Assembly: GCA_951406725.2 (NCBI GenBank)
Contig: OX597837.1
Coordinates: 16,678,001 to 16,742,000 of the forward strand
From: Octopus vulgaris
Lineage: Eukaryota
Length of the DNA stretch: 64,000 bases
Direction: 5' to 3'
The notes under the pieces were generated by a model. That model ran no database searches and had not been told where the DNA came from. It saw nothing but the letters and a program-made list of their open reading frames with translations. This document shows positions 40,513 through 60,054 of this stretch, piece by piece. How positions within the stretch are numbered: position 1 is the first letter of the stretch; every line of letters begins with the position of its first letter. Both the position numbers and the translations under genes were made by a program.

Positions 40513-40846
40513 ACACCACCCTGTACTTAACTCCATGTCCCCCTACATGGCCTTGCTATTTGCTTTTGAGCCAAATTAACTAACTAACTAACTAACATAC
40601 ACACGTACACACATATATAAACATATACATGACTGCATTTTTCCAGTTTCCTTCCACCATATCCAATCACAAGGCTTTGGTCGGCTCGGGGCTATAGTTG
40701 ATTTTTCAAACGATGCTGGTGTGTTTTCCTCCCTGTATTTCAGCGGCTCATCAGAAAAGAATAAGTTAGAATAAATACTAGGCTTATAAAGAATAAGTCC
40801 TCGAAGAAGATAGATTGGTATATATATATATATATATATATATATT

Positions 40847-40987
40847 GGCGTTAGGAAGGGCATCCAGCTGTAGAAACACTGCCAGATCTGACTGGCCTGG
40901 TGCAGCCTTCGGGCTCCCCAGACCCCAGTTGAACCGTCCAGCCCATGCTAGCATGGAAAGCGGTCGTTAAATGATGATGATGATGAT
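40847..40987 (+). mobile_element. Extremely 5'-truncated RTE-type 3' end with (GAT)n tail inside (TA)n
   Basis: TGGCGTTAGGAAGGGCATCCAGC..CATGCTAGCATGGAAAGCGGTCGTTAAATGATGATGAT; TA on both sides. Confidence 0.75.
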
Positions 40988-43900
40988 ATATGTATATATA
41001 TGTATATATATATATATGTATATATATATGTATATATATATGTATATATATATGTATATATATATGTATATATATATGTATATATATGTATATGTATATG
41101 TATATATATATGTATATATGTATATGTATATATATATGTATATATGTATATATATATATATGTATATGTATATATATGTATATATATATATATATATATG
41201 TATATATATATATGTATATATATGTATATATATATATATGTATATATGTATATATATGTATATATATGTATATATATATGTGTATATATATGTATATATA
41301 TGTATATATAATTATATATGTATGTATATATATATATATATATGTATATATATATATATATGTATGTATATATATATATATATATATATATATATATATA
41401 TATGTACATATATGTATGTATATATATATATATATATATGTACATATATGTATGTATATATGTATGTATATATATGTATATATATGTATATTTATGTATA
41501 TATATGTATATATAGGTATATGTATGTATATATATGTATATATATGTATGTATATATATGTATATATATGTATGTATATATATGTATATATATGTATGTA
41601 TATATATGTATATATATGTATGTATATATATGTATATATATGTATGTATATATATGTATATATATGTATGTATATATATGTATATATATGTATGTATATA
41701 TATGTATATATATATGTATGTATATATATGTATATATATGTATGTATGTATATGTATGTATATATATGTATGTATATATATGTATGTATATATATGTATG
41801 TATATATATATATGTATATATATATATATGTATATATATATATATATATATATATATATATATATATATATATATATATATGTATATATATATATATATA
41901 TATATATATATGTATATATATATATATATATATATATATGTATATATATATATATATATATATATATATATATATATATATATATATATATATATATATA
42001 TATATATATATATATATATATATATGTATATATATATATATATATATATATATATATATATATATATATATATATATATATATATATATATATATATATA
42101 TATATATATATATATATATATATATATATATATATATATATATATATATATATATATATATATATATATATATATATATATATATATATATATATATATA
42201 TATATATATATATATATATATATGTATATATATATATATATATATATATATATATATATATATATATATATATATATATATATATATATATATATATATA
42301 TATATATATATATATATATATGTATATATATATATATATATATATATATATATATATATATATATATATATATATATATATATATATATATATATATATA
42401 TATATATATATATATATATATATATATATATATATATATATATATATATATATATATATATATATATATATATATATATATATATATATATATATATATA
42501 TGTATATATATATATATATATATATATGTATATATATATATATATATATATATATATATATATATATATATGTATATATATATGTATATATATATATATA
42601 TGTGTATATATATATGTATATATGTATATATATGTATATATATATATATATGTATATGTATATATATGTATATATGTATATATATGTATATATATATATA
42701 TATATATATATATATATATATATGTATATATATATATATATATATATATATATATATATATATATATATATATATATATATATTATATATATATATATAT
42801 ATATATGTATATATATATGTATATATATGTATATATATATATATATGTATATATATATATATATATATGTATATATATGTATATATATGTATATATATAT
42901 ATATATATATATATATGTATATATATATATATATATATATATATATATATATATATATATATATATATATATATATATATATATATATATATATATATAT
43001 ATATATATATATATATATATATATATATATATATATATATATATATATATATATATATATATATATATATATTATATATATATATATATATATATATATA
43101 TGTATATATATGTATATACATATATGTATATATATGTATATAATATATATATATATGTATATATATATATATATATATATGTATATATATGTATATACAT
43201 ATATGTATATATATGTATATATATATATATGTATATATATGTATATATATATGTATATATATATATATATATATATATATATGTATATATATGTATATAT
43301 ATATATATATATATATATATATATATATATATATATGTATATATATATATATGTATATGTATATATATATATATGTATATATATATATATATATATATAT
43401 ATGTATATATATATATGTATATATATATATATATATATATATATATATATATATATATATATATATATATATATATATATATATATATATATATATATAT
43501 ATATATATATATATATATGTATATATATATATATATATATATATATATATATATATATATATATATATATATATATATATATATATATATATATATATAT
43601 ATATATATATATATATATATATATATATATATATATATATATATATATATATATGTATATGTATATATATATATATATGTATATGTATGTATATATATAT
43701 ATATGTATATGTATGTATATATATATATATATGTATATGTATGTATATATATATATATATATATATATATATATATATATGTTATATATATATATATATA
43801 TGTATATGTATATATATATATATATATGTATATGTATGTATATATATATGTATATGTATGTATATATATATGTATATGTATGTATATATATATATATGTA

Positions 43901-44080
43901 TATGTATGTATATATATATATATATGTATATGTATGTATATATATATATATGTATATGTATGTATGTATATATATATGTATATATATGTATATGTATATA
44001 TATATATATATGTATATGTATATATATATATATATATGTATATGTATATATATATATATATATGTATATATGTATATGTA
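40988..44080. repeat. (TA)n array, about 3.1 kb, with TG interruptions
   Basis: Directly visible. Confidence 0.97.
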
Positions 44081-57885: not shown

Positions 57886-57935
57886 ATATATATATATATA
57901 TATATATATTTATAAAGATATATCAGATATATATA

Positions 57936-59709
57936 TAAACTTAGATAAACTTAGATATGTTTCGACCAAAGATTGGTCCAGGCCATGTCTAACTTAATAG
58001 CACCACCTGATAGGATTATTTGAATCCTGTTTAAGTCAAGTTTTGTTCAAGTAGTGAGTTCTTGTTGGGTGAGTTGTATCCAGTTTTGTTGAAGTAGTGA
58101 GTTCCTGTTGGGTGAGTTGTATCCAATTATGGATGGCTTATCTGGTATTCTTTGAAGGAATCTATCCAGACTCTGTTTCAAGTTGATGGGATCCTTTTCC
58201 TGTTTGATCTCTCTCGGGAGAATGTTAAATAGGGCAGGGCCTGTTGAGGAAAAGAAATTATGTTGCAGTGTACATGTATGTTGTGATCTTGAATTGGGCT
58301 TGGGACGTATAGCCCGCGGTCCAAGTCTTGGATGATCCTTGAAGCTAATGTTTAGGTCGTTTGGGCATAGTTGGCGGTATATTTTCCACATCGTACAAAT
58401 GATGTCCCGCTCACGGCGACGCTTGAGGGAGTAAAGTTTCAAGGCTTTAAGGCGATCCCAATAATCTAGAGCAGCCATGCCTTCAATTCGTTTAGTGAGT
58501 GCCCTCTTGGGTGACTCAATTCTGGAGATGTTTTGTCTTGTTTGAGGAGACCACAGTGGGCAGCAGTATTCAAGGTGTGGCCGTACAAAGGAGGAAAAAA
58601 GTGGTATGATGACACTTTGTTCTCTGGACCGGAAAGTTCTTAAGATCCAGGAACTCATCCTACGAGCTATATCGACCTTCTTGTTGATGTGTGCACTCCA
58701 ACTGAGATCGTCATCAACAATTACACCCAGGTCTCTGATATTGTTAGAGGCTGTGAGCGGTTCCCCTGAAGGAAGAGAGTATGGCTGTTTTAGTGAGGAG
58801 TTTCTTCCAAAATGCATCAGCTCAAATTTTCCCTCGTTTAGTTGCATTTTGTTTCTGTTTGCCCATTGACTCACAGCATATAGATCAGACTGGAGTTGAG
58901 TTCGGTCTGCTTCTTCATTGACGATTTGCTGGAGCTTGGTGTCATCAGCAAATATTTTCACTTTGCAGTAATGTACGACACTGGAAAGGTCGTTTATTTA
59001 GATTATGAAGAGTAGCAGACCCAAGACAGTCCTCTGGGGGACACCGCTGATGACTTTTGCTGTCCTTGAGTGGACTCCATCAACTACAACATGTTGTGTT
59101 CTATTCGCCAGGAAATTCTTGATCCAGTGTAGAACTTTTCCACGGATTCCAACATTTGCCAATTTTGAGAGTAGGATATTATGGTTTACCCTGTCGAACG
59201 CTTTACTGAAGTCAAGATATATGACATCAGAGTTCGAACCTGTTCCCAAGGCTTTGAGTACATCTTCAATGTGGTGTAAGAGCTGTGTTAGACTTCCCTG
59301 CCACAGCGAAAGCCATGCTGATTTGCATTTAGTAGTTTCTGGGTCTCCAGGAAGTCAGACATCCTTGATCTTAACACTCTTTCAAACACTTTGATGATGT
59401 GGGAGGTGAGTGAGATTGGGCGATAGTTGAGTGCGAGGGATCTGTTTCCCTGTTTGAAAACCGGGATGACTGACTGGGATAGAAACTGTTATGGTATATA
59501 ACCTGCATCTAATGAATTTCTCCATAGGTTGTCAGTGGGACAGCAAGTTGGTGTTTACATTCCTTCAGGAGACGAACGGGGAATCTATCAGGGCCTACAG
59601 CAGAGTAGTATTTGACCTCATTTATTGCTGCTACGATGTCAGTGGGAGTGAAGGTTATGTCTGCAATTTTGTGTTGGGAGTCACTAAAGACAGCAGTATT
59701 GTTTCTGCA
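57936..59709 (-). mobile_element. 5'-truncated, frameshifted CR1-group LINE with (ATCTAAGTTT)2 tail, flanked by short TA runs
   Basis: AVGPDRFPVRLLKECK, YLDFSKAFD, SGVPQ, FADD, YSLKRRRER; 43-bp-period duplication at 58049-58125; 3' UTR related to 52310-52392. Confidence 0.9.
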
Positions 59710-60054
59710 ATATATATATAGAGAGAAACATGTATATACATATAGATATTTATATATATGTATATGTGTGTATGTTTCGGTGTCCCCAAAACCGCTTGAC
59801 AACCAATGCCGGTGTTTTTTACACTCCATTAACTTATCCGTTCGGGAAAAGAAGACCAACAGATTTAATACTAGACTGACGTAGATAAAAGTCTTAGTGT
59901 CGATTTGCTGTAGAAAAGGCTGTGCTCCAGCATTGGCACAGTGAAATGACTAAACAAGGAAAAGAGTAAAAGTGTGTGCGTTACGTCTGAACATTATATT
60001 GTAGAGTTAATTAGCTTCCACAATACATTTTGATGATAGTCATGTAACTAAATG

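Follow-up and report, generated by a model that had tools for sequence, protein, structure and literature searches.

Insertions of one APE-RT LINE clade at a duplicated TA microsatellite site in Octopus vulgaris

Introduction

The window analyzed here, a stretch of 64,000 nucleotides from Octopus vulgaris contig OX597837.1, contains a TA microsatellite site occupied by several LINEs, which raises the question of whether these elements select TA repeats as a target or have simply collected there. Target choice by APE-type LINEs outside the R1 and Tx1 clades is regarded as weak, and the microsatellite elements Waldo, Mino, Kibi, and Koshi are placed in R1/Tx1. The microsatellite-specific non-LTR elements named in the available text of PMC3812793 are Waldo (ACAY), Mino (AC), Kibi (TC), Koshi (TTC), and Dong (TAA), and site-specific LINEs among the APE clades are found only in Tx1 and R1 (PMC13295347). 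If the LINEs described here home on TA, they would be a lineage of APE-type elements that targets microsatellites yet belongs to neither R1 nor Tx1, and their target repeat is one that the available list in PMC3812793 gives for no LINE. A real bias toward TA, together with an apparently intact copy carrying an assayable endonuclease, would allow microsatellite targeting to be tested in a further lineage and would help to account for the tens of megabases of LINEs that TA-rich cephalopod genomes tolerate. If instead TA is no commoner at the junctions than in the background, the locus is a TE hotspot of the ordinary kind.

Results and Discussion

Two paralogous copies of one TA site

One TA site was found to be common to two paralogous units with flanks that are 88 to 91% identical. 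The left flank motif occurs exactly twice in the window, at 40800 and 57864, as does each of the right flank motifs, at 56197/59749 and 56229/59781. The proximal left flank of copy A (40591..40818), composed of truncated SINE pieces, matches 57641-57910 with 88.1% identity over 270 bp, and the right flank (56196..56423, + strand), composed of a TA/TG linker and the second half of a dimeric SINE, matches 59748-59973 with 90.7% identity over 226 bp. Collinearity continues outward, with 86 to 88% identity between 34482-35570 and 56672-57663, the former lying in the distal left flank of copy A (34482..35572), which comprises SINE fragments and AT-rich repeats. In copy B, the matching left flank (56672..57882) is followed by a short TA run consisting of (TA)13 and degenerate TA (57883..57940), and the right flank (59710..59973, + strand) starts with short TA and continues into the same SINE half as in copy A. 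The paired motifs, flank identity, and outward collinearity bear out the proposal in the preliminary description that both intervals are the same locus in two copies of a unit.

The copy A tract spans 40819..56197. Its size was correctly given as 15.4 kb, but it is not all TA, as 10,647 bases of TA repeat, split into five segments, are accompanied by approximately 4.7 kb of insertions. These form islands at 40846-40985 (+), 44081-47335 (-), 50598-50766 (+), and 51223-52390 (+), and the independent insertions in both orientations that had been proposed are supported. The impurities of the repeat are nearly all G on the + strand. Noise-like T runs were observed at 48044-48069.

An assembly artefact, in which unrelated LINE-bearing reads were chained via TA runs, would account for such an interval. 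No spanning read was seen, none of the contigs listed covers even the element at 44081, a gap is close by, and the T runs resemble noise. However, each of the four large TA segments has G polarity at both of its ends (eight ends in all), with a chance of approximately 0.5^7 under random joins, whereas short runs elsewhere have both polarities. In addition, the assembled sequence starts from the left flank and ends in the right flank that copy B predicts, and there is no N within 40819-59745. Since the shared polarity and the return to the expected flank both disfavor a misjoin, we consider an artefact very unlikely.

APE-RT LINEs adjoining TA belong to one clade

Five APE-RT LINE copies adjoin TA, at 44081, 50598, 51223, 57936, and 60836, representing four subfamilies designated A, A2, B, and B2. 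A tree was built with the 130 sufficiently long loci among 163 related loci and included no named references. In this tree, the four subfamilies formed one clade (SH-aLRT 100), to which only L001, L002, L081, and L082 of the 130 related loci belonged. LINE C (35573..40594, + strand; ORF1 of 494 aa, ORF2 of 989 aa with APE and RT, and a (TAAC)n tail) was separate from this clade and is inserted outside TA, in a CA-rich part of the copy A left flank.

LINE A (44081..47335, - strand) has one open APE and RT frame of 998 aa from the Met at 47171, an (AATC)n tail, and a 16-bp duplication at its 5' junction, and it is probably near full length; no ORF1 was seen upstream of the frame before the TA junction at 47335. 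The frame contains an N-terminal Exo_endo_phos domain (residues 84-276), with no C-terminal family and no Pfam match after the RT. The catalytic motifs of the endonuclease are present, and an APE fold was predicted, the model matching L1 ORF2p and APE domains, although a fold search of this kind cannot discriminate target specificity. A PDB sequence search with the endonuclease domain was uninformative. Family A produced 44,017 and 37,716 contig records at 90 to 100% identity in two public runs, and the family looks dispersed and high-copy. Two raw-read runs of 12.9 million reads each gave only 4 and 18 reads on LINE A.

The long LINE B copy (51223..52390, + strand) is 5'-truncated inside the RT, with a frame open to the stop and a two-unit 8-mer tail, while the short copy (50598..50766, + strand; 169 bp, 5'-truncated) differs from it by 2 substitutions and lacks one of its tail units. 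In copy B of the unit, LINE B2 (57936..59709, - strand) is 5'-truncated and decayed, with frameshifts and an in-frame stop, and its junctions exhibit 34 bp of filler and a 13-bp repeat, matching at all but one base, that is a candidate target duplication. B2 had been described as a different LINE, and it is not the same element as that at 51223, but it is a sister subfamily, with 66 to 67% amino acid and 69% nucleotide identity and a 3' UTR in common. LINE A2 (60836..62007, - strand; 67% amino acid identity to A) lies beyond a 100-N gap, with its 3' end at the gap, and a second TA tract adjoins its 5' junction. Possible target duplications inside the TA tract, the best being 28 to 34 bp with one mismatch, were set aside as low-complexity sequence.

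Elements of the R4/Dong clade carry a restriction-like endonuclease after the RT and no N-terminal APE, and those of Tx1/L1 (Kibi, Koshi) have a C-terminal zinc-knuckle after the RT and an A-rich tail. R1 elements (Waldo, Mino) have a Gag-like ORF1 with cysteine knuckles and an RT grouping with R1. The N-terminal endonuclease and the lack of a C-terminal family ruled out R4/Dong, and the lack of a Pfam match after the RT, together with short tandem tails behind a double hairpin, ruled out Tx1/L1. The features of CR1/L2 LINEs (Jockey superfamily) were present, namely, an APE and RT ORF2, a 3' stem-loop, and a tandem-repeat tail, in a clade placed without named references. Database matches to the clade proteins were unnamed or "hypothetical protein."

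A SINE shares the 3' double hairpin and may have seeded the tract

The 3' motif was found 9 times, against an expectation of 0.05, and the double hairpin gave z scores of -2.6 to -4.3 in all five sequences folded, with compensatory changes in 4 of 11 pairs. A dimeric SINE with abundant matches in the window comprises a first monomer, a TA/TG linker, and a second monomer carrying LINE-A-type 3' hairpins (reference copy, 11043..11454, - strand, matched to 11490). The LINE and SINE therefore share a 3' tail in both sequence and secondary structure, the feature by which partner pairs are recognized. A search of Rfam gave no match, and an exact 3'-motif scan of viral contigs found nothing. As the double hairpin of the clade is the SINE tail, the A/B-clade LINE is likely the partner of this SINE, and this side result is firmer than the TA bias.

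Among CR1/L2-group LINEs with partner SINEs, an example is CR1-14_CGi with BivaV-SINE2/BivaCORE-SINE1 (PMC4824008, PMC4758252, as far as their available text goes). The A/B clade resembles these systems in that its ORF2 encodes APE and RT, its copies are frequently 5'-truncated and end in a tandem-repeat tail, and its 3' stem-loop recurs in a SINE with compensatory changes. It differs in that LINE A has no ORF1 upstream within 47335, and the likeness is one of features rather than of named references. The available portions of the same two papers do not describe a TA bias for the partner systems.

For the right flank of copy A, identity with the second SINE half at 11043-11490 is 77%, and the G polarity of the tract agrees with that of the SINE linker. 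These two matches suggest that the TA tract was likely seeded by the SINE-internal TA/TG linker, which would explain its origin without LINEs and which the preliminary description had overlooked. Of the short TA runs in the window, 15 of 33 are inside a SINE match or within 40 bp of one.

TA at the LINE junctions

All five clade copies in the window adjoin TA, and no clade fragments were found elsewhere in it. By inspection, all nine observable junctions are at TA; eight are above the TA-step cut-off of 0.55, and the ninth (B2 5', score of 0.53) starts with (AT)5. Among non-LINE positions, the share with TA on both sides is 25% and that with TA on either side is 29%, falling to 1.5% and 5.2%, respectively, outside the two giant tracts. 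The target of B2 is a short TA run. Since the 5'-truncation junctions are also in TA, the repeat is a target and not only a LINE tail, and an origin as a mere tail was ruled out. For four events, the naive P values were approximately 0.004 to 0.007, but these are inflated, as the window was chosen for its TA-LINE pattern. The copies at 50598 and 51223 may not be independent.

The preliminary description had linked "these families" in general to TA. Enrichment was found for the A/B clade in this window, and the wider statement was not supported. In particular, the 140-bp element at 40846..40985 (+ strand), a putative RTE tail that is 5'-truncated and terminates in (GAT)n, belongs to a family with only one of four window copies in TA, the three others being outside.

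Strict targeting, in which the APE endonuclease of the clade in this host recognizes (TA)n as those of Waldo, Mino, Kibi, and Koshi recognize their repeats elsewhere, would fit the five of five copies in TA, the two orientations, the inclusion of 5'-truncated copies, and the short-run target of B2. However, TA follows none of the four independent SINE copies whose 3' end is complete and carries the clade-type covarying tail (11043, 25849, and the paralogue sets 57446/35356/30959 and 56423/59970), although the SINE copies tested may be older than the present LINE subfamilies. Neither of the two clade members in other hosts with a visible 3' junction is in TA. In public runs, no family A loose end was TA among the matches listed (14 of 1,232 rows, the two repeat ends of LINE A, with 16 rows, being left out), and none of six distinct "behind" places was TA among those matches, some of these being nested insertions or variants. 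With the family also seeming dispersed and high-copy, strict targeting appears quite unlikely. For a CR1-like family in another host, which lies outside the clade and serves as a generic control, 14 loci were examined, and none of the 13 3' ends visible among them was followed by TA.

The SINE, other-host, and loose-end controls fit no preference as well as they fit a weak one. A gene-free, probably subtelomeric TA tract may collect any abundant active LINE, and the window may have been picked from the tail of the distribution. This is consistent with the very many divergent copies of family A, with the unrelated RTE-labelled tail in the tract and the copies of its family outside TA, with the TE hotspots of O. 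vulgaris (PMC13282606), and with the passive accumulation near CA repeats proposed for Drosophila Waldo-A/B in the available text of PMC3812793. Against it are the insertion of B2 at a short TA site where only 1.5 to 5% of positions qualify, the lack of clade copies in the approximately 38 kb of the window that belong neither to LINEs nor to the giant tracts, and the same TA context for four subfamilies. We regard the absence of any preference as somewhat unlikely.

AT/TA repeats form cruciforms and break (PMC12972899, PMC13645644, in the text available), and LINE RNPs of any abundant family might be captured at such breaks independently of the endonuclease. The filler at the B2 5' junction, the 16-bp duplication at the LINE A 5' junction, and the two unrelated families within one tract are in keeping with this, but 3' hairpins and tails are intact in all clade copies, and B2 has its candidate target duplication, as in normal target-primed reverse transcription. 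The B2 target would also be too short for a stable cruciform. Break capture seems very unlikely.

A soft TA bias with safe-harbor accumulation is likelier than a strictly (TA)n-specific LINE. Our preferred reading, held at about even confidence, is that a SINE-linker TA tract was duplicated, expanded in one copy, and filled by one APE-RT clade with a loose TA bias. The microsatellite likely started as the internal linker of the dimeric SINE; duplication of the unit would have placed it in two copies, with a 10.65-kb expansion in one, where slippage rather than insertion may lie behind most of the growth. The LINEs likely entered through the usual target-primed reverse transcription, loosely favoring TA-rich DNA. 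The endonuclease may nick TpA-rich, easily unwound DNA, and the short AT-rich tail units may form a few base pairs with the nicked strand. Tail-target pairing over one to several bases is described for CR1, L2, and RTE LINEs in the available text of PMC6007223. Insertions would persist because the tract is gene-free. In a stronger version, an octopod CR1-like clade would have evolved (TA)n targeting and would home on microsatellites scattered by its own passenger SINE, the SINE building landing pads and the LINE filling them until TA tracts become multi-kilobase retrotransposon arrays; this seems unlikely.

Like Waldo, Mino, Kibi, Koshi, and Dong, the A/B-clade LINEs are non-LTR elements with, in this window, a microsatellite at both junctions, and they share the APE endonuclease with the first four. 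They differ in their repeat, TA being absent from the LINE targets in the available list of PMC3812793, in having no Pfam match after the RT and tandem-unit tails behind a double hairpin, and in that their specificity is a candidate one, with several controls speaking against strictness. Like Waldo-A/B, they are LINEs that frequently lie within or beside a microsatellite and whose cleavage specificity is unproven, although clade, host, and repeat all differ. TA as a target repeat and safe harbor is shared with Micron (PMC3812793) and MuTAnT (PMC4486113), which the available text of these papers presents as TA-microsatellite-targeting DNA transposons, but those are plant cut-and-paste elements, whereas the elements here are retrotransposons.

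A TTAGGG array near the locus

The locus had also been placed next to a telomere. A degenerate TTAGGG array of 362 bp (60374..60735, + strand) is present, with 39 perfect units of approximately 60, but the 100-N gap (60736-60835) and 3.2 kb more sequence follow it, so it is at most a candidate chromosome end. The LINE junction at 62007 is in TA as described, but since it lies beyond the gap, its linkage to the locus is putative. The second TA tract, at 62008..64000, has C polarity.

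Two paralogous copies of a TA locus

Each flank motif of the TA tract was present exactly twice in the window, and the surrounding sequence aligned as collinear pairs: 34482-35570 with 56672-57663 (86 to 88% identity), 40591-40846 with 57641-57910 at the left flank (88.1%), and 56196-56421 with 59748-59973 at the right flank (90.7%). The two intervals had been described in preliminary form as paralogous copies of one TA locus, which proved real and correctly described. Copy A (40819-56197) contains, as assembled, 10,647 bases of TA repeat interrupted by four islands, namely the 140-bp tail of a retroposon (40846-40985, + strand), LINE A (44081-47335, - strand), a 169-bp end of LINE B (50598-50766, + strand), and LINE B itself (51223-52390, + strand). 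Copy B, with (TA)13 and degenerate TA, holds LINE B2 (57936-59709, - strand). A 100-N gap comes after a degenerate TTAGGG array of 362 bp; LINE A2 (60836-62007) and a second TA tract thus lie beyond the gap, and a chromosome end here is a candidate only.

Further partial copies of the SINE-rich unit extend across 26382-35570 (for example, 27907-29969 versus 32315-34302, 88%; 26382-27477 versus 28010-29097, 96%), making the region a layered segmental array. A short palindromic repeat family, MITE-like by appearance and with several inverted arms (56408-56671, 60036-60376, 29029-29183, and 33318-33526), borders the ends of the unit as well as the TTAGGG array.

Impurities in the copy A tract were nearly all G on the + strand, at 8 of 8 ends of the four large TA segments; both polarities occurred among short TA runs elsewhere, and the tract past the gap was C-polar. 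The chance of such polarity surviving random chaining through TA is about 1 in 128, and the assembly path comes back to the right flank predicted from copy B. This uniform polarity and the return to the expected flank make a misjoin unlikely, and an assembly artefact is the explanation to which we give least credence; no reads spanning the tract were seen, and its exact length is uncertain.

The LINE clade and its probable partner SINE

LINE A has a single open frame, 998 aa long when counted from Met, that encodes APE and RT domains; the catalytic motifs of the endonuclease are present in the sequence, and the confidently predicted structure (pLDDT 83) matches L1 ORF2p and APE domains. Amino acid identity was 67% between A and A2, 66% between B and B2, and 39% between A and B. 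A quick tree was built from 165 RT-plus-C-terminal rows, drawn from 130 of 163 loci, from 30 proteins, and from 5 window elements. In it A, A2, B, and B2 formed one clade with SH-aLRT 100, and LINE C was placed elsewhere; it included no named reference, so the label CR1-like rests on architecture. The highest-identity match to LINE B among the 120 listed, and the sole species-named one, was from Argonauta hians (64%), which makes an octopod host likely. B2 is decayed, with frameshifts and an in-frame stop, whereas A and B are open, indicating insertions of different age. LINE A has a 16-bp tandem duplication (47308-47338) at its 5' junction, which may reflect a template jump at insertion.

Every clade copy closes with a double hairpin, compensatory changes being found at 4 of 11 pairs across seven sequences. 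A dimeric SINE, abundant in the window, has the same hairpin at the end of its second monomer, and by the criterion for partner assignment used in PMC4824008 this common 3' end makes the clade the likely partner LINE of the SINE.

The complete SINE at 11043-11454, its monomers joined by a TA/TG linker, has about 20 other matches in the window, in most of which TA/TG repeats come after the first monomer; it resembles octopus repeats. In both copies of the locus the right flank consists of the TA/TG linker and second monomer on the + strand, in agreement with the G polarity of the tract, and 15 of the 33 short TA runs of at least five units outside the giant tracts lay inside a SINE match or within 40 bp of one. 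Taken together, these features suggest that the copy A tract was likely seeded by a SINE linker and enlarged by slippage; run-length patterns repeat locally within it, as fits such growth, and no observation pointed to insertion as its driver.

TA at LINE junctions

All five clade copies in the window adjoin TA, with none elsewhere in it, and 8 of 9 observable junctions exceeded the 0.55 TA-step cut-off, the ninth starting with (AT)5. Because 5'-truncation junctions also lie in TA, TA is the target rather than the tail. With 25 to 29% of non-LINE positions qualifying, P was 0.004 to 0.007 for four independent events, and the site type hit by B2 makes up 1.5 to 5% of sequence outside the giant tracts, figures that overstate the case since the pattern was itself the reason for choosing the window. 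Pure neutral accumulation is possible, if rather doubtful; capture of the elements at cruciform breaks in TA we regard as very improbable. We put at about an even chance that the elements inserted by ordinary TPRT, with TA-rich DNA loosely favoured, and were retained in a gene-free tract. Nicking would occur at TpA-rich, readily opened DNA, AT-rich tail units would pair with the target over a few bases, as described for CR1, L2, and RTE LINEs (PMC6007223), and insertions would persist as the tract is gene-free.

A 5'-truncated LINE at 1626-2504, presumably RTE-like and with no Pfam match, has TA at both junctions, (CA)n(TA)n on one side and (TA)34 on the other. LINE C (35573-40594), of another clade, sits in a CA-rich SINE linker in copy A only; it has two ORFs, an ORF1 of 494 aa with a 288-bp internal duplication and an ORF2 frame of 989 aa.

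The LINE targets listed in PMC3812793 are ACAY, AC, TC, TTC, and TAA, TA being given there as the target of a DNA transposon; MuTAnT likewise targets TA (PMC4486113). According to PMC13295347, site-specific LINEs among APE clades are confined to Tx1 and R1. In O. vulgaris, recent activity of CR1 families and hotspots of TEs are reported in PMC13282606, with no discussion of target sites in the accessible text. A CR1-like LINE targeting TA was not described in any paper listed by literature searches that took in few subscription papers and not Repbase Reports, which does not imply absence.

Strict (TA)n specificity appears improbable. TA followed none of four independent complete SINE 3' ends and neither visible 3' junction of clade members from other hosts (L001 and L081), and one of four copies of the 140-bp tail family lay in TA. 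LINE A matched 44,017 and 37,716 records in two public contig sets at 90 to 100% identity, as expected of a family that is large and dispersed, with the caveat that depth does not equal copy number. None of the 14 loose ends listed out of 1,232 rows showed TA, both LINE A termini being left out of this count and the 16 rows there dropped. The proposal of (TA)n targeting is plausible in its weak form, and its strong form faces several counter-examples.

Between 0.71 and 0.96 of sampled words from 44110-47300 were present in public runs under 12 organism labels, yet two raw-read runs sharing the organism label of the run with the highest share yielded only 4 and 18 reads. Many prokaryotic genome records (loci L081 to L160) have contigs bearing LINEs of eukaryotic type, probably host DNA that entered the bins.
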